Shown here piece by piece: positions 712 through 34,726 of a stretch of DNA of 64,000 nt. Origin of the DNA: Candidatus Moraniibacteriota bacterium. GTDB lineage: Bacteria; Patescibacteriota; Minisyncoccia; Moranbacterales; GCA-2747515. Under the pieces are notes generated by a model. That model searched no databases. It saw nothing but the letters and a program-made list of their open reading frames with translations, and was not told the DNA's origin. Positions within the stretch are counted from its first letter, which is position 1; each line of letters begins with the position of its first letter. The DNA is taken from the NCBI GenBank assembly GCA_002747515.1, contig PDPP01000016.1, positions 50,369 to 114,368 on the forward strand, given 5' to 3'. Made by a program: the position numbers and the translations under genes.

Positions 712-1872
712 ATGAAAAATATTTTGAAGTATATTGGAGTTGGCATAATTATTTTTATTATTGGTGGTTTAGGTGGTCTTTTGATGGATTACATGATTTT
801 TTCCAAAGTGATTACACATCCCGTATGGTCTGAATATCCATTGATTAAGGCATTGGACAATCGTGTTAAAGTGATTAAAAATACAGAAAAAATTGTTGTG
901 GAAAACAACGAGTCTATAGCAGATATTGCCAATCGTGCGTCAACAACTGTGACCTATGTTGAGGTGGTGCGTGCTAATGGAGAGAGAGTTTCTGGAAATG
1001 GTATTGTGATTAGCAGTGATGGTGTGGTTGCAACGACGATAGGTGACATTGATGAAACAGATGCTGTGCATATTAAACTTTCTGATAATAGTATTTATAC
1101 AGTGTCATCTTTTTTTAATGATTCCTACACTGGTATTACATTTCTTAAGATTAATGCAACTGACCTTGCCACGATTTCATTTGCAAATTCAGATGAAGCA
1201 AGAAGCGGAAAACAATTGATTGGGATTATGCAGTCACGTATGAAAAATGGGGCATATTTTGCTTCAGGAGGTTTAATTGGAAATGCGTACAATAAGAGTA
1301 TTATGTCACCAATATCTGATCATCTTCAAGGTACGCTTAAAATTGATTTATCTGAGAGTGTATTTGAGATGAGTGTTGGAGCACCTGTAGTAGATTATCA
1401 TGGAAATATGATTGGTCTTATTGCAAAAAAGAATGTGACGGATATGATTAGTGGTGTTGTAGTTGATACAGAATATTATGCGATTGCGGCAAATGACGTA
1501 TATAAGGCGTTTGAGGATTATTTGCACAATGAGAATGATGAAAAAGCACAACAACACCTTTTGCTGGGTGTGGATTATGAGATGATTAGTAGTATGGATG
1601 TGTATATTGATCAGTTGACAGTGGATAGTGGTGCAAAAATTATTGGACCAAAAGCAGATGCGACATATCAACAAAAAACACTGTTTAATAATACACTAGC
1701 TGCACGGAGCGGATTGCTTGGAGGTGATATTGTTGTCATGGTAGATACAAGCGTAGTGGATGTGAAACATAATCTTTCACGATTAATGCATGATGCTCGT
1801 GGAAAAAATGTGACACTAAAGGTTATGCGAAATGGGGAATTAGTCTCTATTGATATACGTTTATCCAAATAA
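712..1872 (+). CDS. HtrA/DegP-like trypsin-fold protein with C-terminal PDZ domain and N-terminal TM anchor, possibly non-catalytic
   Basis: GNGIVISSDGVVATT block resembles the S1C protease core and the C-terminal segment is PDZ-like; by eye the catalytic His and Asp are not found where DegP has them. Confidence 0.5.
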   Translation: MKNILKYIGVGIIIFIIGGLGGLLMDYMIFSKVITHPVWSEYPLIKALDNRVKVIKNTEKIVVENNESIADIANRASTTVTYVEVVRANGERVSGNGIVISSDGVVATTIGDIDETDAVHIKLSDNSIYTVSSFFNDSYTGITFLKINATDLATISFANSDEARSGKQLIGIMQSRMKNGAYFASGGLIGNAYNKSIMSPISDHLQGTLKIDLSESVFEMSVGAPVVDYHGNMIGLIAKKNVTDMISGVVVDTEYYAIAANDVYKAFEDYLHNENDEKAQQHLLLGVDYEMISSMDVYIDQLTVDSGAKIIGPKADATYQQKTLFNNTLAARSGLLGGDIVVMVDTSVVDVKHNLSRLMHDARGKNVTLKVMRNGELVSIDIRLSK

Positions 1873-1882
1873 ATTTCCTTTG

Positions 1883-1911
1883 TTGACATAATTTGTGGGA
1901 TGTAGTACACT
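1883..1911 (+). promoter_or_regulatory. sigma70-like promoter for rplU (TTGACA-17-TACACT)
   Basis: ttgaca at 1883-1888, 17-nt spacer, tacact at 1906-1911, about 65 nt upstream of the rplU ATG. Confidence 0.55.
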
Positions 1912-1977
1912 TTAGTGACGTTACAGTAGTGAAACTACTGCAAATTTTGATATAATTTTTTTAGTTTTTTTAGAAAG

Positions 1978-2286
1978 ATGCTTGCAATAATTAAAACTGG
2001 CGGAAAACAATATAAGGTGTCAGAGGGTGACAAAATCACGATTGAAAAGATCTCGGGTGAAGCAGGAGATAAGATTATTTTTGATGAAGTGCTTTTGATG
2101 GGGGATGATAAAAAAGTGGCGGTTGGTACACCAAGTCTTGAAAAATCTATTGTAGAAGGGAAGATTCTTGCACAAAATCGTCATGATAAAGTGTGGGGCA
2201 TCAAGCATAAGGCAAAGAAACGATATAAGGTGAAATATGGTCATCGACAATCCTATACAGAAGTAGAAATCACAAAGATTAAATAA
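1978..2286 (+). CDS. rplU: 50S ribosomal protein L21
   Basis: MLAIIKTGGKQYKVSEGDKI matches the L21 N-terminal signature; 102 aa. Confidence 0.9.
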   Translation: MLAIIKTGGKQYKVSEGDKITIEKISGEAGDKIIFDEVLLMGDDKKVAVGTPSLEKSIVEGKILAQNRHDKVWGIKHKAKKRYKVKYGHRQSYTEVEITKIK

Positions 2287-2292
2287 AACTTT

Positions 2293-2318
2293 AAAACCGC
2301 TTTCACGAGCGGTTTTTT
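2293..2318 (+). terminator. intrinsic terminator after rplU
   Basis: aaaaccgc tttcacga gcggtttttt: GC stem plus T-run, 7 nt after the stop. Confidence 0.7.
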
Positions 2319-2582
2319 GATTGCATAGAGAAATAAATTTTGATAGTATATAGAAGCTAAATAAAAGATGTTTTGTGAAAAATGAAAAAAATTGTATTGC
2401 AAAACTTGTATTATTTTTATCAAAAGTCATCGGGCGTGTCTCGTGAAATTTTTTTAGTTATTTTTTAAATGTATTTTACATTTTTGAATATAGAGAGATG
2501 CATGGAGTTCTCAAATACGTTTAGAATGATATATAACACTACGATATGTTTATAAAATGATTACTTATTAAAATTTAGATAT

Positions 2583-3905
2583 ATGTTAGATATTAAATAT
2601 ATTCGTGGAAATGCGGATAAAGTACAAAAGGCAGCGGAAAATAAAAATATTGAAATTGATGTGAAAAAATTTCTCATTCTTGATCAAGAGCGTGTTGGTT
2701 TGATAAAAGAAATAGAGGCTTTACAGGAGAAAAAAAATAAAATTAATACACAAATTAAAGAAGCATGTAATGATCAAGAGCGAAAAAAAATTATTGCAAA
2801 AGGAAAAGAGATAAAGGAAAAAATTGATGTTGTGAAATTACAGGTAAAAGATATCGAAGAAAGATACAACACTTTGATTAAAAAAATACCAAATATCCCA
2901 ACAGAAGATACACCAATTGGAAAAACGGAAGATGAAAATGTTGTTGTTTATGAATGGGGTAAAAAACCAGAATTGAAATTTGATGCAAAAAATCATTGGG
3001 AATTAGCACAAAATAATGATTGGATTGATAAAGAGCGTGCTGCAAAAGTGACAGGGGCGCGTTTTGCTTATCTTAAAGGAGACTTGGTGATATTGCAATT
3101 AGCACTTATGCAATACGTAATGGACACATTAACTGATGAAGAAAAAATTGCAGAAATTGTAAATCATTTTGATGTCGGTGATATTGAAACAAAACCATTT
3201 ACGCCAGTATTTCCACCATTTATGATTCGTACAGAGATGTTTGATGCAATGGACCGACTTGAACCACGAGATGATCGTTATAAGATCGAGGGTGAGGATT
3301 TGTGGTTACAAGGTTCTGCAGAACATGTTCTTGGCGCATTGCATTGTAATGAAATTCTTAATGAAGAAGATTTGCCTTTTCGATACATTGGGTATGCAAC
3401 AAGTTTTCGTAGGGAAGCTGGCACATATGGTAAAGATATGGAAGGAATTATTCGTATGCATCAGTTTGATAAATTGGAAATGGAAATAATTGCAACACCA
3501 GAACAAGGACTTAATGAGCATTTTTTGACAATTGCTGTACAGGAATATTTATTGAGAAATCTAAAATTGCCATATAGAAAATTATTGAAATGTACAGCAG
3601 ATATTGGTAAACCAAATGTACGTGGAGTTGATATGGATGTTTGGCTTCCAGGTCAAAAAGCGTATCGTGAGACACATACAGCTGATTATATGACTGATTA
3701 TCAATCTCGACGATTAAAAACGCGTGTGCGTTTGGCGGATGGCACATTGGCATATGTTCATACAATTGATGCAACTGCGTTTGCATGTGGTCGTGCATTG
3801 GTTGCAATTTTGGAAAACTTCCAACAAACAGACGGAAGTGTTGTAGTGCCAGAAGCGTTGCGACCATATATGTCTGGTGGAAAAGATAAAATTACAAAAA
3901 AGTAA
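2583..3905 (+). CDS. serS: seryl-tRNA synthetase
   Basis: MLDIKYIRGN start, N-terminal coiled-coil arm, class II core; 440 aa. Confidence 0.93.
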   Translation: MLDIKYIRGNADKVQKAAENKNIEIDVKKFLILDQERVGLIKEIEALQEKKNKINTQIKEACNDQERKKIIAKGKEIKEKIDVVKLQVKDIEERYNTLIKKIPNIPTEDTPIGKTEDENVVVYEWGKKPELKFDAKNHWELAQNNDWIDKERAAKVTGARFAYLKGDLVILQLALMQYVMDTLTDEEKIAEIVNHFDVGDIETKPFTPVFPPFMIRTEMFDAMDRLEPRDDRYKIEGEDLWLQGSAEHVLGALHCNEILNEEDLPFRYIGYATSFRREAGTYGKDMEGIIRMHQFDKLEMEIIATPEQGLNEHFLTIAVQEYLLRNLKLPYRKLLKCTADIGKPNVRGVDMDVWLPGQKAYRETHTADYMTDYQSRRLKTRVRLADGTLAYVHTIDATAFACGRALVAILENFQQTDGSVVVPEALRPYMSGGKDKITKK

Positions 3906-3987
3906 TCATAATTAAATAATAATATGGAATTTTTTATTCATAGAAAATGTGATATAATATTTTATATAAATAAATAAATATAAAAGC

Positions 3988-4245
3988 ATGTTGAATAAAA
4001 AAATGGACGTAAATTTTGCATTTGCAATCTTATTGCTTGTTGCAGCAATTGTAGGTGTGTATTTCTTTTTGAATATGGCAAATGAAGAAGTTGGAGATAT
4101 TTACGAAGAAGATAACTATAACATGATTGTTGAACGAAGTGATAAAAAAAGTGTATTTGATGAAGTGAAGAAAGAAGATGCTGTAGAGGACAATGTGTTG
4201 GAAAAAAACACAAAAGAAATGATGAAAAAAACAGTTATTGAATAA
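3988..4245 (+). CDS. small membrane-anchored acidic protein, hypothetical
   Basis: One N-terminal TM helix (FAFAILLLVAAIVGVYFFL) then an acidic tail; followed by a terminator. Confidence 0.35.
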   Translation: MLNKKMDVNFAFAILLLVAAIVGVYFFLNMANEEVGDIYEEDNYNMIVERSDKKSVFDEVKKEDAVEDNVLEKNTKEMMKKTVIE

Positions 4246-4271
4246 ATAAAAATTGATAAATTTGTATAGTT

Positions 4272-4311
4272 TTAAAATAGGTGCTCTGCTCTAGGAAGGA
4301 GAGCGTCTTTT
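4272..4311 (+). terminator. intrinsic terminator
   Basis: gctct aggaagg agagc hairpin followed by gtctttttgttttt. Confidence 0.55.
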
Positions 4312-4380
4312 TGTTTTTAAAAATAAAATATGTGAAAGTAATAATTATTTAAATTAACATTTTTCTTTTTCTGCTTTTTT

Positions 4381-4530
4381 CCGTACACGTGTATGTGCTC
4401 TACGAGCACAGTAGTACGTTCTACCACCATTACTCTGATTTCTTTACTGATAGAACTTTCAGTTCTACAAAGATCAGAAGCAATCATGGATTACTTCTAT
4501 TCCAAAGAAAGCTTGGAGGTTGAATTTAAG
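4381..4530. other. highly structured intergenic element of about 150 nt, candidate ncRNA, strand undetermined
   Basis: Several nested perfect hairpins (cgtac..[gtgctc tac gagcac]..gtacg; tctgat..[gaact ttc agttc]..atcaga; tccaa agaaagc ttgga); no ORF; lies between a terminator and a consensus promoter. Confidence 0.3.
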
Positions 4531-4539
4531 TAACAGTTA

Positions 4540-4568
4540 TTGACAGTATCTTGTTTTTGCTGTATATT
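4540..4568 (+). promoter_or_regulatory. consensus sigma70-like promoter (TTGACA-17-TATATT)
   Basis: ttgaca at 4540-4545, 17-nt spacer, tatatt at 4563-4568; drives the small two-gene unit downstream. Confidence 0.65.
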
Positions 4569-4622
4569 GAATTTTTAGATTTTTTGGCGTGTTTTTTAAA
4601 AATAAAATAAAAGAGGAGATAA

Positions 4623-4787
4623 ATGAAAAAAGTAAATGAAATCTTACAAAACAGTGTCTTTTTGCGGTTAGCGTGGTTGCGTGATCGTGAACAATTAAGC
4701 ATGGAAACGTTAGAAGAAATGGCGGTAGAAAAATCTTCTTTTCTTAGCCAATGGGCACAAAAAGAAATCGAAAGAAGGAGGAAGTAA
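4623..4787 (+). CDS. 54-aa XRE/Cro-like helix-turn-helix protein (not in ORF track, under 60 aa)
   Basis: AGGAG RBS 6 nt upstream; MKKVNEILQNSVFLRLAWLRDREQLSMETLEEMAVEKSSFLSQWAQKE fits an HTH_XRE pattern; its stop is 2 nt before the next ATG. Confidence 0.45.
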   Translation: MKKVNEILQNSVFLRLAWLRDREQLSMETLEEMAVEKSSFLSQWAQKEIERRRK

Positions 4788-4789
4788 AA

Positions 4790-5122
4790 ATGTCACTACA
4801 GTATTCAAAGTGTTTTCTTGTGCGTATGCGCTATAGTGCTACAAAGAGAGATGAACTGCTTTGTGCAGATCAATTTTTCAATCAGTATATCACAGCAGAT
4901 GGTTTTCATGATGTGTGGCATATTGCACGTCGCATATTGGCAGATAAAATTGCAAAAAAATTTCATGTGCCAATTAGCGCTGTTCATATTAAGCAACTAA
5001 GCGATATGCGTGTATGGAAGCATTCTGAGCATAAGTGCATAGAAAGTCAAAAACGCGCACTAAAAAATCAGAAAAAAGTAAATGGTCCAAAACAAATGCG
5101 TTTGCCATTTACAGGTGTTTGA
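4790..5122 (+). CDS. 110-aa hypothetical protein, partner of the small HTH gene
   Basis: AGGAGG RBS 8 nt upstream of ATG 4790 (track ORF 4751 is an upstream extension); no recognisable family. Confidence 0.5.
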   Translation: MSLQYSKCFLVRMRYSATKRDELLCADQFFNQYITADGFHDVWHIARRILADKIAKKFHVPISAVHIKQLSDMRVWKHSEHKCIESQKRALKNQKKVNGPKQMRLPFTGV

Positions 5123-5205
5123 AAAACAGCAAGTGAAATCACTTGCTGTTTTAAATAGTGTTTCAAAAGTGCAGGTTTGTACTTTTTTTGGTATACTATT
5201 TTTAT

Positions 5206-7287
5206 ATGAAGGTAAAACAAAAATTAACACAACTATTCAATCCGCAGTCAATTGCTGTTATTGGTGCTAGCAGTACTAAAGGCAAGGTAGGAAATATGAT
5301 TGCAAAAAATATTTTGGCACATAACTATTCTGGAAATGTGTATTTTGTTAATCCTAAGAGGAGTCGAATCTTTGGGAGGAAATGTTATAAATCGCTTTCA
5401 GATGTTGAAAACAATGTTGATTGTGCCATTGTTGTTGTGCCGGCGAAATATGTGGTGAATGTGGTGCGTGATAGTGTGAGCAAGTGCAAGAATTTTATAG
5501 TGATTTCTGCGGGATTTGGGGAAAGTGGTTCTGAGGGACATAATAGAGAAATTGAATTAAATTTATTAGCAAAAGAATTGGATATACAGATTCTTGGTCC
5601 AAATTGTTTGGGGTTTTTAGCACCATCTTTGGGGTTGAATGCATCATTTGCGGAAGGATTACCAGTGGAAGGGCATACAGCGTTTATTTCGCAGTCTGGT
5701 GCACTTGCAGTAGCAATGATGGATAAGGCGCGTGCTGATCATATGGGCTTTTCACTCGTAGTATCAATTGGCAATAAGATGCAAATTGGTGCGGCAGATA
5801 TTATTGATTACTTAATAGAGGACAAAAAAACAAAAGTAATTGCACTTTATCTCGAAGGTGTGATTCGGGGAAGGTATTTACTCAAGGTGTTGGCACGGGC
5901 ATATAAGGCAGGAAAGAAAGTTGTTGTGCTCAAATCTGGACATTCTGAAGATGCACAACGTGCCATAGCACTTCATACGGGGTCACTTGCTGGAAGCGAT
6001 GAGATTTTTTCTGCAGCTATCGAAAAAGTAGGTGCAATTCGTGCACAAACTATGGATGAATTGTTTGCTCTTATGCTTTTTGGTGCGTATTGTGATGTTA
6101 AGACATTTGGTTCTCGTGTAAGTGTAGTGACAAATGCAGGGGGTCCGGGTGTGTTAGCAGCAGATATTGTGGCGGATCTGTCATCACTTGAAATGAATGT
6201 TTTTGCATCAGAAACAAAGAAAAAGTTGCAGAAAAAATTACCGGTAGCAGCATCTGTGCACAATCCTGTAGATTTACTTGGAGATGCAAATATTGATCGG
6301 TATAGAGAAGGGTTAAAAATTGTTTTAGCAGATGAAAAAACGGATGTTGTGCTTGTGTTATTGACACCACAAGATCAAACACCGGTTGATTTAGTTGCTG
6401 AACTACTTGTGGAAGTGCAAAAAAAGTCAAAAAAGATGATTTTAACATCGTTTATTGGTGGTGTCCGTGTTGCGAATTCTGTACAATATATGCGCGAAAA
6501 TGGCGTTTTACATTTTGATACACCGCAAAGAGCACTTAGTGCATTGGCGAGTTTTGTGAAAGAAAAAAAAGTCTTTATGCTGACAGAGAAGTCTGTTAAT
6601 AGAGAGCGTCGCATAAAGACAAGACAGATTATTGATCGTGGATTTGAACACGGTGGACTGTATTTTGCAGATGTGGCAGAGATAGCAAAAATTTATAGTG
6701 TGCCAATTGTAAAGTTTGTGGATGTGACGAACGGGTTAGATGCGCAAACACATATAAAATATCCATGTGTAGCAAAGATTGATAATCCAAAAATCGCACA
6801 TAAAACAGATCGTGGTGGTGTGATTGCATCAATTAAAACACTTATCGAGCTTGATCAGGCGCGGAAGACCTTGCTTCGCAAGTTTCCAGAGAAAAATTCA
6901 CGTGTAATTGTACAAAAAATGCTACCAATTGAGACAGAACTTATTATTGGAATGAAGAAAGATCCTGTTTTTGATACGGTGATTGTGGCGGGTTTGGGCG
7001 GTGTTTATGTGGAGGTATTTCATGCAGTGGATCATTATGTTACACCATTATCCATCACAGAGATTAAAAAAATACTTACAACAGGAGCACTTGCATTTTT
7101 ATTTGATGGTACACGTGGAGAAAAAAGTTATGATAGTGATATGATTGCTCATGTAATTCAAACACTTGCGTTGATTGGTCGAGAAAATCCTGAGATTATT
7201 GCAATAGATATCAATCCGTTACTTGTTTATAATAATGATGCAGTGGATACTGCAGTGGATTTTAAGATTATAATTAAAAATACATAA
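5206..7287 (+). CDS. ADP-forming acetyl-CoA synthetase / NDP-forming acyl-CoA synthetase, fused alpha-beta
   Basis: CoA-binding Rossmann (SIAVIGASSTKGKVGNMIAKN), succinyl-CoA-synthetase-like flavodoxin domain and C-terminal ATP-grasp; start chosen at MKVKQKLTQLF (ATG 5206). Confidence 0.85.
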   Translation: MKVKQKLTQLFNPQSIAVIGASSTKGKVGNMIAKNILAHNYSGNVYFVNPKRSRIFGRKCYKSLSDVENNVDCAIVVVPAKYVVNVVRDSVSKCKNFIVISAGFGESGSEGHNREIELNLLAKELDIQILGPNCLGFLAPSLGLNASFAEGLPVEGHTAFISQSGALAVAMMDKARADHMGFSLVVSIGNKMQIGAADIIDYLIEDKKTKVIALYLEGVIRGRYLLKVLARAYKAGKKVVVLKSGHSEDAQRAIALHTGSLAGSDEIFSAAIEKVGAIRAQTMDELFALMLFGAYCDVKTFGSRVSVVTNAGGPGVLAADIVADLSSLEMNVFASETKKKLQKKLPVAASVHNPVDLLGDANIDRYREGLKIVLADEKTDVVLVLLTPQDQTPVDLVAELLVEVQKKSKKMILTSFIGGVRVANSVQYMRENGVLHFDTPQRALSALASFVKEKKVFMLTEKSVNRERRIKTRQIIDRGFEHGGLYFADVAEIAKIYSVPIVKFVDVTNGLDAQTHIKYPCVAKIDNPKIAHKTDRGGVIASIKTLIELDQARKTLLRKFPEKNSRVIVQKMLPIETELIIGMKKDPVFDTVIVAGLGGVYVEVFHAVDHYVTPLSITEIKKILTTGALAFLFDGTRGEKSYDSDMIAHVIQTLALIGRENPEIIAIDINPLLVYNNDAVDTAVDFKIIIKNT

Positions 7288-31439: not shown

Positions 31440-31662
31440 GACAACATATGTATATACCATCTTTTGAAAAACTAGTATCACAAAACGAGGTATATCAAAA
31501 AAACTTTGATCAATTTGCAAATGAAAGTGACGTTTTTAATGTATTTGCACAATTATATTTTTAAACCTACTTTTTATTGCACAGCTAATTTGCAAAACAT
31601 ATGGTAAAAATGCTTTTGTGAAAGATATCATATCAGGTTTGGTTCGACGCCTCTAAATACAT

Positions 31663-31693
31663 ACACTACGTAGTATAGTAGTGTGTGGTTTTT
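31663..31693 (+). terminator. orphan intrinsic terminator-like hairpin
   Basis: acactac gtagtata gtagtgt followed by gtgg ttttt; ~230 nt downstream of gltX with no ORF in between. Confidence 0.35.
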
Positions 31694-31990
31694 ATTTGGA
31701 AGTATTTGATTTTGTCACAATGTGTTATGGATATCGTTGGATATTTTGACGTGTGAGTTTTAGACTGTGTGAGGGTGTGCAGAATGTACGATTTCTCTTG
31801 GATATAATGTGCTTATGAATAAAAAGATTTCTTCTTATTTATAAAAAATCTGAAGCACAGAGATTGTGGTAGATGTCATCAATAATATCTTTGTGGTAAA
31901 GCAAAACCGCTCTTGTAATTGCCTATGGAGAGATCTCTGGGTTATCAATATTATGATGTTTTCAGCACGCTCCATGTGAAAAAATGCGTA

Positions 31991-32344
31991 TTAGTTCACT
32001 TTTCGAAATGCGACGCTATATGTTGGCTCATAAAGATTATCATATTCATCACGTACTTCTACAGTTTCACCATCCATCATTGTTGAAAGAGAAATGTCTG
32101 ACATCATTTCTTGGAGAGATTTTATTTCACCTTTGAGTTCTTCAAGTTTTTCCCAACGCATGCCCATATCACGTTGTGCACTAAGCTCATGTTGTTTTTT
32201 AATTTCTCGAAGATCATGTAATTTTTCTATAATTTCTTGATATTTTACATCTTGTACTAAGACGTCTTTATATTCTTTGCGAATTTCTTTCATTTCCTTT
32301 TTTGCCTCTTGCATTTCATTAAAAACTTCTTGCACATCTTTCAT
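31991..32344 (-). CDS. coiled-coil hypothetical protein
   Basis: 117 aa, K/E-rich heptad-like N-terminal region, short beta-rich C-terminus; no family. Confidence 0.4.
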   Translation of the reverse strand: MKDVQEVFNEMQEAKKEMKEIRKEYKDVLVQDVKYQEIIEKLHDLREIKKQHELSAQRDMGMRWEKLEELKGEIKSLQEMMSDISLSTMMDGETVEVRDEYDNLYEPTYSVAFRKVN

Positions 32345-32517
32345 ATATTTTTTAATTAGTATTTATATATACAAAAAATATTATAGCACATAACTGTAGG
32401 GGAGTGGATACTTTAATAAAAAAAAGAGTAATAATATTTTTTTAGAAATTACCGCAAAGTATATATATCATTGTATACAGGACTTTTTATTTTGTAAAAA
32501 TAATTGTAATAATTTTT

Positions 32518-32531
32518 TTATGTCGCACAAT
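32518..32531 (+). repeat. half-site copy (ttatgtcgcacaat) of the dif-like arm
   Basis: Exact 14-mer shared with the copy at 32793 and with both arms of the 33078-33105 palindrome. Confidence 0.6.
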
Positions 32532-32792
32532 ATAAGTAGTATATTTTTCAATTTAATAAGGGGAATATGTGTATAATATAAAATGTAAAAAATATTTGTA
32601 ATATATAGTATTTGTTAAAAACAAAAAAAATTTAAAATAAATTTATGATGAAAATTTTTTATGATGCAAGTCAAAAAATAATAAATTTTTATAAAAAACG
32701 CAATATATTGATATATAAATATACAAATAATAAAATAAGCACAATAAGTTGTAATTTTTCGCATACTATAAGGTATAAATATATTACTTATT

Positions 32793-32806
32793 TTATGTCG
32801 CACAAT
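32793..32806 (+). repeat. half-site copy (ttatgtcgcacaat) of the dif-like arm
   Basis: Same 14-mer, 275 bp from the first copy and 283 bp from the palindrome. Confidence 0.6.
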
Positions 32807-33077
32807 GTATCATCTCTTTTTTAAAGAATGATGGAAAGTTATAACACATATTATCAATCATATAACCTTAACACAAACGGTAAGATCCTAAAATAAGTTT
32901 AGGATGAAAAAAAATGTCTTTGGTTTTATATTATAAAATAGTATTAATTGATTATCATAATGAAAAATGATTATTGATTATACGATAAAAAACAAAGCTA
33001 GGTATCTATACTATATGTAGTAATAAAAACTTAATAAAACACTGTAATATACAAGGTATAGTTGTATATTATATGTT

Positions 33078-33105
33078 ATGTCGCATAATATACATTGTGC
33101 GACAT
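33078..33105. repeat. dif-like Xer recombination site (11-bp arm / 6-bp centre / 11-bp arm palindrome)
   Basis: atgtcgcataa-tataca-ttgtgcgacat. The reverse complement gives ATGTCGCACAA-TGTATA-TTATGCGACAT against E. coli dif GGTGCGCATAA-TGTATA-TTATGTTAAAT: identical central TGTATA and ~20/28 identities overall. It sits in a 1.1-kb AT-rich gene desert at the gene-orientation switch. Confidence 0.55.
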
Positions 33106-33450
33106 ATTATATAAAAATATAATATTTCCCATTTTTCTCTCATTATTACATATATAAAAAATACTTTCGTCTGTACATTTATATAAAAAAGGTGCTCTAC
33201 TACGAAGAAGCTTACATTGTGTCTACACGGTATAATTATGCATTTTATCAACATTGTAGATATACACGCATATATTCAAAAAATTTTTTCTTTTTTTCAT
33301 AAATTTTTCTTTTTCATTTTTATATTGAATAGTAATTTATTTTTTTCAGTATAAAATAGGTGATTAACTCAAAAATTGTTCTCACTTCCCTTTTAGAAAT
33401 TTATACTAAAAAAGACCACTATGCATTATAGCGATCTTTATTCTGAAAAA

Positions 33451-33882
33451 TTATTTTTCAGGTATTTTTTTGCAAAAAAATGTTGTGTTAACTTTAGCGA
33501 ATCCATATTTTTTGTACAGTCCTTGTGCAGCTGCACGGGATTCATGACTTGTTAATTCAACTTGATTTGTTCGAGGATGTCTCATAGCCGCTTCTAGAAG
33601 TTCTTTCATCAATTTATCTCCATAACCATTACCACGTTCATCCTCGTGTACGACAATGTCATTTAATACTGTAATCCAACCGCGTGATTGTGCATAGTAT
33701 TTTGAAAGAGATCCATAAGCAATGATCTTTCCGCTTTTTTCCCCGACAAGACAAAGAATGGGCAACTTTCTCAATTCTTCGACAGTTTTTAATAAACATG
33801 CGTTTGGAGAAAGCTGCTTTAATAACTCATTAATTTCGTCACAAAAATCATCGTCATTGAGTAATCTAATCTTCACTTTCAA
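33451..33882 (-). CDS. GNAT family N-acetyltransferase
   Basis: VHEDERGNGYGDKLMKEL acetyl-CoA binding motif. Confidence 0.75.
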   Translation of the reverse strand: MKVKIRLLNDDDFCDEINELLKQLSPNACLLKTVEELRKLPILCLVGEKSGKIIAYGSLSKYYAQSRGWITVLNDIVVHEDERGNGYGDKLMKELLEAAMRHPRTNQVELTSHESRAAAQGLYKKYGFAKVNTTFFCKKIPEK

Positions 33883-34015: not shown

Positions 34016-34726
34016 TTAGTTACTTTTGATAAGAGTACCTTCAAATTTTTCATCATTAAGATACGCTTTGAGGTTTTCTAAATTAGTGCCTTTTAAAGTG
34101 ACTACCTCAATGTCTTCTTTTTCAGCAAATTTAGCAGCAACTGGATCAAATGGCACATTCATACCAGGTGTCCATTTATCTGCATGTGTCATTTCACGAT
34201 ATTCCGCCCATGACAACTCTTCAATTTTTTTTGCATCAGGAAATTCTTGTGGATCTTTATCATAAATATAGTCAATGTTTGACAGATTTACAACTTTTTT
34301 AATGCCAAGGTAACGTGTTAATAATGCAGTATCATAATCAGTGGAAAAACCAGGTTTCCAACCAGCAGCAATCATGATTGGTTGTGTGCACTGATGAAAG
34401 TCTTCTAAATCATGAGGGTTTGTATTGATGCGTGGATGTGCATGATCGCGAAAAATTGTACGAATAAGATGCGCATTCATACGTGTTGCATGAATACCAA
34501 GCCAGTCTTTATCTTCATCATTTACTTCTTCGCAAATTGTACCAGCAGCTTCCGCATAACGTCGTGCTGTCTTACCGCCACCAGTAATAAAAACAAAACG
34601 TTGTTCTTTTGCTTTGATTTGTTCAAGAATTAGAGTACGAAATTCTTTTAGAAAATCAACGTTAATATCATTTGGCACAATGAGAGAACCGCCAAGATTT
34701 ACAATAAATGTTTTTTTTGCATCCAT
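34016..34726 (-). CDS. pyrH: UMP kinase, archaeal-type (amino-acid kinase family)
   Basis: FIVNLGGSLIVPNDINVDFLKEF...VFITGGGKTARRY closely follows the archaeal PyrH pattern (IGGSVL..P....D..FI ... VVGGGKLAR.Y); about 235 aa, shorter than bacterial PyrH. Confidence 0.65.
   Translation of the reverse strand: MDAKKTFIVNLGGSLIVPNDINVDFLKEFRTLILEQIKAKEQRFVFITGGGKTARRYAEAAGTICEEVNDEDKDWLGIHATRMNAHLIRTIFRDHAHPRINTNPHDLEDFHQCTQPIMIAAGWKPGFSTDYDTALLTRYLGIKKVVNLSNIDYIYDKDPQEFPDAKKIEELSWAEYREMTHADKWTPGMNVPFDPVAAKFAEKEDIEVVTLKGTNLENLKAYLNDEKFEGTLIKSN

Follow-up and report, generated by a model that had tools for sequence, protein, structure and literature searches.

Why should a palindrome in a non-coding stretch of a compact bacterial genome be accompanied by isolated copies of one of its own arms, set apart from it by DNA that appears to encode nothing? 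The question arises from a locus in a 64,000-nucleotide stretch of Candidatus Moraniibacteriota DNA, which is the whole stretch that was analysed and is hereafter called the window. The original prediction had noticed a 14-mer, TTATGTCGCACAAT, that occurs twice by itself and again in both arms of a palindrome, and had offered three explanations for the dispersed copies: half-sites left behind by IMEX-type integrations at dif, binding sites for a terminus-organising protein, or iterons. Here we ask what the palindrome is, whether the isolated copies recur in related genomes, and which of the possible explanations of their presence best agrees with the way in which they are conserved.

The AT-rich island and its dif palindrome

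The palindrome lies in an intergenic island with a GC content of 20-23%, as against about 34% for the 64-kb window, bounded on one side by the start of p117 (31991-32344, minus strand), a conserved coiled-coil gene with a product of 117 amino acids, and on the other by the stop codon of a gene for a GNAT acetyltransferase (33451-33882, minus strand). The coordinates of the features discussed here are collected in Table 1. A low-GC, non-coding equivalent of the island was found in every syntenic relative, and neither the ORF list, nor Pfam, nor comparison with the relatives revealed a conserved open reading frame in it, in agreement with the original description of the region as an AT-rich gene desert. 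An ORF of 59 amino acids (32645-32824) was considered as a small protein gene and rejected, having no Pfam hit and being interrupted by stops in all frames in the relatives; in the Logan contig L001 this ORF had been called a gene. A search of the whole window against Rfam gave nothing at gathering thresholds and, in E-value mode, a single match at chance level (E 0.51), while a structured RNA at the conserved block upstream of half-site B was discarded after RNAalifold gave -6.2 kcal/mol with one compensatory pair. There is no tRNA or tmRNA within the window that could have served as an integration target. The genes of the window are compactly spaced and include those for DnaB, PriA, an archaeal-type UMP kinase and a Pif1-type helicase, a content that indicates a CPR/Patescibacteria genome, as do p117 homologues that carry the label Moranbacteria.

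Table 1. Features of the dif island and its surroundings, in window coordinates.
Feature	Position	Strand	Basis or remark
AT-rich non-coding 'dif island'	32345..33450	.	ORF list, Pfam, GC
Promoter-like site for p117, TTTACA-17-TACAAT	32470..32498	-	consensus match only; 20 nt from half-site A
Half-site A (p117-proximal), ATGTCGCACAA	32520..32530	+	no partner arm
Conserved block directly upstream of half-site B	32701..32792	+	~74-76% identical to L243, L253
Half-site B (dif-proximal), ATGTCGCACAA	32795..32805	+	perfect inverted invariant arm, no partner arm
GTA-N5-TCTTTTTT tract 3' of half-site B	32807..32822	+	common to B-type sites of L243, L248, L252
dif core site, 28-bp 11-6-11 palindrome	33078..33105	+	sequence, GC skew, synteny
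Terminator-like hairpin with T-run, end of GNAT gene	33411..33439	-	

The palindrome consists of a variable arm, ATGTCGCATAA (33078-33088), a central TATACA (33089-33094) and an invariant arm, TTGTGCGACAT (33095-33105), and it agrees at 24 of its 28 positions, compared by hand, with the published consensus for dif sites of bacteria. From the left end as far as about 32 kb the GC skew stands at +0.2 to +0.3, past that point it is negative, the cumulative GC-skew maximum (32.5-33.5 kb) falls at the position of the palindrome, and gene orientation flips at the same place. The same 11-6-11 site is found downstream of gltX in L002 and L003, which are the closest GTDB relatives, and in L064 and L073. 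The pattern TGTCGCNNAATNNNNATTGTGCGAC matched, at the least, more than 120 metagenome contigs, and the arrangement gltX..dif..rpmA is preserved in several of them. Because the palindrome sits where skew and gene orientation change, and because many CPR contigs keep it at a place between gltX and rpmA, we identify it with high confidence as the chromosomal dif, at which the host Xer machinery is predicted to recombine. The change of skew from positive to negative marks a terminus and not an origin, for which reason the interpretation of the dispersed copies as iterons was abandoned.

Polar, KOPS-like G-rich hexamers also switch strand at dif, and 24 of 24 copies of GAGGTG point toward it. Such hexamers are confounded by gene orientation and by Shine-Dalgarno-like sequence, and their polarity in this window probably reflects the orientation of the genes; they were counted only as support for the terminus. 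There is no xer gene in the 64-kb window, nor does its ORF list contain smc or ftsK, so the presence of Xer, SMC and FtsK in this organism is an assumption of what follows. In more distant CPR loci, Xer-type genes adjoin gltX. Since these CPR genes score equally well as XerC, XerD or XerA, any mention of a 'XerD-type' recombinase is meant as an analogy only.

Extra half-sites in the window and in its relatives

The 14-mer occurs in exact form at 32518-32531 and 32793-32806, both times on the plus strand, and with one mismatch at 33076-33089 (plus) and 33094-33107 (minus), the latter two being the arms of dif. The start-to-start spacings of 275 and 283 bp that had been reported were confirmed by measurement. 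When two mismatches are allowed, the 64 kb contain seven matches where 0.99 are expected, a number never reached in shuffled sequence. No further copy with at most one mismatch is found elsewhere in the 64 kb, all half-site copies of the window lie less than 600 bp from dif, and about 100 kb of the relatives' flanks yielded a single one-mismatch match (in L248); within this DNA the 14-mer is not a common REP-like repeat, which had been named as the finding that would refute the original prediction. Each isolated copy contains ATGTCGCACAA, which is what the invariant arm of dif reads on the opposite strand, and the 11 nt at the position of its partner arm match at about 3 of 11. We describe the isolated copies as putative extra Xer half-sites specific to this locus, as had already been suggested in the original prediction, which had also been right in taking the palindrome for dif. 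At half-site B, the place of the absent partner arm is occupied by the GTA-N5-TCTTTTTT tract, and the conserved block on its other side holds a weak inverted repeat (GGTAT...ATACC) together with a TTGTG/CACAA-like motif.

Several features that had been attributed to the array did not hold. A ttgtaat-like motif was said to precede each copy, but TTGTAAT occurs 44 times in the window, stands 14 and 44 nt before the first two copies and has no exact occurrence before the third; the composite of this motif and the 14-mer is not conserved, its parts being separated by inconsistent distances. A phasing of about 280 bp was likewise contradicted by the relatives, in which the distances range from 277 to 805 bp. 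When the segments of about 280 bp were aligned to one another their interiors proved dissimilar, local alignment giving z ~1 against shuffles, and the same result led us to reject a tandem duplication of 280-bp units. The observation that the arrangement is not CRISPR-like was correct, as the repeat measures 14 nt and the spacers about 265 nt.

Starting from p117 homologues with identities of 56-91%, we reached syntenic contigs that come from independent samples. Nine of these (L244, L247, L248, L249, L252, L253, L256, L258 and L261) have the order AA-kinase..dif..p117..gltX, and L243 was added, although its contig ends before dif. One or two extra half-sites are present in all 10 syntenic relatives and in the partial L243, at distances of 277-805 bp from dif (277-746 bp for the extra nearest to the core). 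In all syntenic relatives the extras lie on the p117 side, which is the side of the variable arm, and in the same orientation as in the window, and no comparable half-site was found on the other side of dif. The DNA in which they lie is 8-14 GC points below the average of the respective locus. A perfect 12-mer, ATGTCGCACAAT, is shared by 12 of 15 extras across 11 assemblies, where for all of them together chance alone would give about 0.001. Site B has seemingly decayed or been lost in the lineage of L256 and L258.

Outside this family the picture is more varied. L003 has a compact dif without any extra, and L002 has one extra in the opposite orientation. Among 148 non-redundant contigs with the same dif type, the exact 11-mer occurs six times at no more than 1 kb from dif, where 0.11 would be expected, which amounts to an enrichment of about 50-fold in these unrelated loci, and four times farther than 1 kb from dif, against 0.36 expected. 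Across this broad clade all orientations occur and the side varies too. Because side and orientation vary in the broad set, and because L003 has no extra and that of L002 is reversed, the fixed one-sided array is best regarded as a trait of the window's own family. By these counts it is built on a wider tendency of invariant-arm half-sites to gather near dif.

Arm type, conservation and the origin of the extra half-sites

In the relatives the variable arm of dif, ATGTCG(C/T)ATAA, faces p117 and lies nearer to the extras than the invariant arm does. The two arms can be told apart at position 9, which is T in all ten variable arms of dif (yATAA) and C in all 15 extras (CACAA); position 7 is also T in many of the variable arms. 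Because of the C at position 9, the extras are inverted copies of the invariant arm and not of the arm next to them. In L261 the arms of dif itself have drifted to ACGTCG while the extra retains ATGTCG.

The intergenic DNA around these sites gives a measure of how they have been maintained. Among the relatives nothing outside dif and the half-sites can be aligned, save for a block of about 125 nt upstream of site B, for which blastn gave 76% identity over 125 nt; the flanks of site A could not be aligned between genomes. The upstream flank of site B is homologous in the window, L243, L253, L248 and L252 (shuffle z of 4 to 14.6), and the site-B copies of these five lineages are therefore orthologous. 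Within flanks that are about 74-76% identical, the 12-mer is perfect in four of the five lineages, L252 having one mismatch at position 1, so that site B is better conserved than its own flanks and also than the variable arm of dif. Were site B a neutral scar, it should have lost its sequence no more slowly than the DNA around it and more quickly than a functioning arm of dif; the reverse is seen. Arm type and conservation amid flanks of about 74% identity together argue for selection on the half-sites, and against their being simple attL scars of IMEX integrations.

Such an origin would make the extras attL-type junctions from serial Xer-mediated integrations at dif, with the spacers of 261-269 bp as the degraded elements, and it deserves attention even though we consider it unlikely. 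The geometry is that of serial integration at dif, three direct half-sites of which only the last has a good partner arm, and the number of extras varies between relatives (one or two). Mobile elements moreover do occur on this type of dif: in L152 an element of about 4.5 kb that encodes a rolling-circle Rep has dif at one end and, at the other, an invariant-arm half-site in direct repeat, and the full dif site is present on 41 IMG/VR contigs, several of which are confirmed tailed phages. As to the insertions bounded by half-sites that one would then look for in relatives, a 158-bp indel abuts dif in L258 as compared with L256, but its junction is not the one that a clean Xer crossover within the central region would leave. 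The order predicted for such integrations, L(chromosome)-R'(element) ... L'(element)-R(chromosome), would leave scars with the yATAA arm, whereas all 15 extras have CACAA. The orthology of site B in five lineages and its conservation above both flanks and variable arm are likewise not what a neutral scar would show; the spacers are non-coding and mutually unrelated, and the B-type site, ATGTCGCACAATGTA-N5-TCTTTTTT, has no match in IMG/VR. On these grounds the IMEX remnants of the original prediction are disfavoured, and the extras are more likely to be functional binding sites. An ancient IMEX origin followed by co-option of the half-sites would still be compatible with this evidence. In L010, a restriction-modification (R-M) island lies between exact repeats of TGAAATGTCGCACAAT; the dif-like palindrome of L010 itself is different, a chance match to a 12-mer in the 1.2 Mb of loci has a probability of about 0.14, and these repeats are suggestive only.

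Other explanations leave the extras with a different function, or with none. They could be self-accessory sites that give resolution its selectivity, the recombinase bound to them shaping the synapse so as to restrict recombination to dif sites that stand as direct repeats on a dimer, perhaps with a reduced dependence on FtsK. Known accessory regions are compact and have fixed spacing, TnpI/IRS measuring about 116 bp in all with its motifs within about 100 bp of the core. The 277-746 bp from the core to the nearest extra, variable and spanning DNA that is not conserved, are hard to square with a defined synapse, and we regard this explanation as improbable in spite of the resemblance of the overall plan, an inverted-repeat core with one or two direct recombinase-binding motifs on one side only, to that of TnpI/IRS (PMC2847244). 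It is more doubtful still that the half-sites are transcriptional operators, through which Xer or another regulator would control p117 or unannotated small transcripts. Half-site A does lie 20 nt upstream of the promoter-like site of p117, and a distance of 176-296 nt separates the first extra from the start codon of p117 in the window, L243, L248, L252, L256 and L258, as does one of 198 nt in L261. However, the extras are 531-973 nt from p117 in L244, L247, L249 and L253, another gene intervenes between them and p117 in L247, L249 and L253, and in L259/L260 the p117 gene is present without any half-site; the count of promoter-like matches in the island is not above chance, and neither an RNA family nor a conserved RNA structure was found there. 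Finally, neutral local duplication by slippage, or mere chance, would require no function at all. The AT-rich DNA is prone to repeats and the extras are very close to dif, yet 11 independent assemblies show perfect 12-mers that agree in side and orientation, amid surroundings that cannot be aligned and against a chance expectation of about 0.001, which makes this hardly credible.

A proposed architectural role, and comparison with known systems

We are left with the interpretation that the palindrome is the dif of a CPR (Moranbacteria-like) terminus and that the extras are partner-less copies of its invariant arm, selected as predicted Xer-binding sites with an architectural role, to which, as a whole, we give an even chance of being right. 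Binding of a recombinase to the extras is inferred from their sequence, and by analogy a non-recombinational role appears the most likely one for them. Of the explanations first offered for the array, sites for a terminus-organising protein come closest to this interpretation, with the refinement that the protein would most likely be the Xer recombinase itself. The variation in number (one or two) and in distance (277-805 bp) of the extras between relatives speaks against this interpretation, as do the apparent decay or loss of site B in the lineage of L256 and L258 and the lack of an extra in L003 and its opposite orientation in L002.

The mechanism that we propose is as follows. The isolated half-sites would be bound by the same Xer recombinase as the invariant arm, and would in this way signal the terminus and cause DNA translocases to halt or be unloaded ahead of dif. 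The translocase might be SMC, on which XerD acts in Bacillus subtilis from sites specific to it, or perhaps FtsK, although a role of the extras toward either remains speculative. The extras are found on one side only and are inverted with respect to the invariant arm; because of this, whichever replichore a motor comes from, the face of the bound protein that it encounters first would be the same, the mirror orientation presenting to the left-replichore motor at the extras the face that is seen from the right at the invariant arm of dif. The two arms differ by only 1-3 nt, and perhaps there is just one recombinase in this lineage. More tentatively, this would be a family of ultra-small CPR genomes in which control of the terminus is condensed into less than 1 kb, the one-sided array of half-sites, kept by selection within AT-rich DNA, loading recombinase monomers that stop or unload SMC or FtsK coming from the 'wrong' side. 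Unloading of SMC by XerD, for which Karaboja et al. (2021, Mol Cell 81:756) are the source, is reportedly independent of XerC, of dif and of catalysis, and they are said to have obtained evidence for it in S. aureus as well.

If the interpretation is correct, its consequences reach beyond this locus. A dif site would be defined for a large group of uncultured CPR bacteria, with the consensus RTGTCGCAwAA-N6-TTGTGCGACRY between gltX and rpmA, and that consensus, by marking the terminus, would help to close and orient their genomes. Half-sites for Xer that do not recombine would be a conserved element of terminus architecture far beyond the Firmicutes, and the principle of XerD as an unloader of SMC would be extended, together with a rule of orientation, to the Candidate Phyla Radiation. 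The occurrence of the same site on contigs of tailed phages and of elements with a rolling-circle Rep would suggest that mobile elements of the CPR exploit the Xer recombinase of their host, which bears on how minimal genomes acquire DNA. Were the extras scars and nothing else, there would be little to set this locus apart from other dif regions save flanks that are slightly out of the ordinary.

Among known systems, the setting of this dif recalls 'boundary 1' of Thermococcus kodakarensis, where dif lies in an unusually long (1.9 kb) and unusually AT-rich intergenic region of a compact genome that acts as an SMC boundary and stalls Smc-ScpAB; the authors propose that a disfavoured traversal of dif by SMC is general among prokaryotes (PMC11840125). 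That boundary depends on TrmBL2 and on AT content, and not on dif or XerA, and extra Xer half-sites are not reported for it (PMC11840125). The pdif modules of Acinetobacter plasmids also have several Xer-type sites bounding short DNA, but their sites are complete, alternate in orientation and delimit modules that carry genes, whereas here half-sites surround non-coding DNA. The IMEX arrays of Vibrio cholerae (CTXphi/TLCphi/RS1) and the difA/difB sites of the gonococcal genetic island share with our locus direct dif-like repeats that stand beside a functional dif and have degenerate partner arms. Here, unlike in those arrays, the units measure 261-269 bp, are non-coding and unrelated to one another, carry the wrong arm for attL, and at least at site B are orthologous and conserved across lineages, though the number of extras varies from one to two. 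An inverted core accompanied by direct motifs on one side is the plan also of TnpI/IRS in Tn4430, with its IR1-IR2 core and DR1-DR2 motifs (PMC2847244), and of DR1/DR2 in the integron site attI1, from which the present locus, in comparison with TnpI/IRS, differs in distances of 277-805 bp that vary and that span non-conserved DNA.

The closest likeness in function is to the XerD-specific sites of Bacillus subtilis, terminus sites for one Xer protein that have no partner and do not recombine, at which XerD unloads SMC from the terminus, as these are described in PMC10945525, PMC8669397 and PMC8357415. The extras described here likewise lack a partner; they copy the better conserved of the two dif arms, stand beside dif and are apparently under selection. 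The host here is a CPR bacterium, and the experiments that showed the unloading of SMC were made in B. subtilis. Recombination-independent Xer half-sites at a terminus are thus already known, and what is seen here resembles them in the form of a tight, oriented and one-sided array in CPR bacteria. Compared with the Bacillus XerD sites, as these are presented in the papers that cite them, the extras of our locus differ in being gathered within 600-800 bp of dif, on one side of it and in a fixed inverted orientation.

The dif island and its neighbours

In the family of the window the dif island is invariably neighboured by p117, a gene for a predicted coiled-coil protein that is conserved at 56-91% in 58 clusters and is also found apart from dif (L259/L260, two contigs carrying p117 homologues). 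No family could be assigned to it, the Pfam matches being solely sub-threshold coiled-coil ones. Because relatives hold different genes between gltX and p117, where the window has a second non-coding stretch, our comparison suggests that genes turn over beside the terminus: this position is occupied by an EnvC-like M23 peptidase gene in the closest GTDB relatives (L002 and L003), and, among the p117-homologue contigs, by a GNAT gene in L248 and by ORFs of 153-155 aa in L243 and L247.

Over window positions 1-64000, G-rich hexamers are oriented toward dif on both replichores (for example GAGGTG, 24/24, and TGGGTG, 17/17). This polarity is probably a by-product of gene orientation and Shine-Dalgarno-like sequence, within which a KOPS-like signal could be hidden. 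The UMP kinase encoded in the window is of the archaeal type, not the bacterial pyrH type.

Features of the window and of the compared loci
Feature	Location	Strand	Remarks
p117	window 31991-32344	(-)	117-aa predicted coiled-coil protein
Second non-coding stretch	window 31440-31990		about 550 bp, gltX to p117
Terminator-like hairpin	window 31660-31687		inside the gltX-p117 non-coding stretch
UMP kinase, archaeal type	window 34016-34726	(-)	TIGR02076, 190 bits, above cutoff
dif-like palindrome	L010 12358-12385		AGTTCGCATAA-TTATAC-TTAAGCGAATA, differs from that of the window
Xer-type recombinase gene	L010 12420-13361		adjoins the dif-like palindrome
Exact 16-bp direct repeats	L010 14290-14305 and 18844-18859		TGAAATGTCGCACAAT; enclose a 4.5-kb restriction-modification island
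Element of ~4.5 kb	L152 about 1050-5603		flanked by dif and by an invariant-arm half-site in direct repeat
dif-type palindrome	L204 7550-7577		IMG/VR contig
dif-type palindrome	L211 524-549		IMG/VR contig
dif-type palindrome	L234 149-174		IMG/VR contig
dif-type palindrome	L217 840-865		IMG/VR contig
dif-type palindrome	L216 5036-5061		IMG/VR contig

Xer genes near gltX

Downstream of gltX, at a distance of 0.1-0.6 kb, many Paceibacteria-type CPR genomes carry a gene for a Xer-type tyrosine recombinase (genome_contigs loci L014, L015, L021, L024, L025, L028, L030, L033-L037, L040, L043, L058 and L059; the distance in L014 is about 1.5 kb). In the family of the window, dif stays near gltX, yet a xer gene is absent within 64 kb. 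In the distant relative L010 (GluRS 43% identical), the restriction-modification island between the TGAAATGTCGCACAAT repeats may be Xer-related, or its repeats may be a coincidence.

An indel, an IMEX-like element and phage-like contigs associated with dif

The assemblies L256 and L258 are 99.3% identical, with identical p117 proteins, and differ by a 158-bp indel (about 4287-4444 in L258), one boundary of which coincides exactly with the outer border of the dif variable arm. Within the insert lies a degenerate version of the CCTCTATTTCTTTTTT tract found after the extra half-site of L258. The junction is not the one that a crossover in the central region would give.

The L152 element has the appearance of a small IMEX that has inserted at the dif type of the window. 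It codes for a rolling-circle replication initiator (phrog_3419) and for a second protein with a P-loop motif and a weak match to the head-morphogenesis family phrog_20922. Besides L152, the observation covers L182 and eight further loci with the TTGTCGCAAAATAGTTATTGTGCGACAT variant, and the element occurs in several samples.

In IMG/VR, 41 contigs carry the same 28-bp palindrome as the window, often close to a contig end. A PHROGs search of three of them identified TerL, TerS and a major head protein in L204, TerL in L211, and no more than a weak major-head/protease match in L234; L216 and L217 are phage-like by ORF layout only. The site is flanked by terS and terL in L204, and in L211 has terL on one side and, on the other, an ORF of 150 aa that PHROGs did not match. 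The retrieved stretches of the dif-bearing contigs yielded no tyrosine recombinase. We regard these contigs as candidate tailed phages of CPR hosts exploiting the host Xer, which such phages might use either for multimer resolution or, in an IMEX-like manner, for integration at dif.
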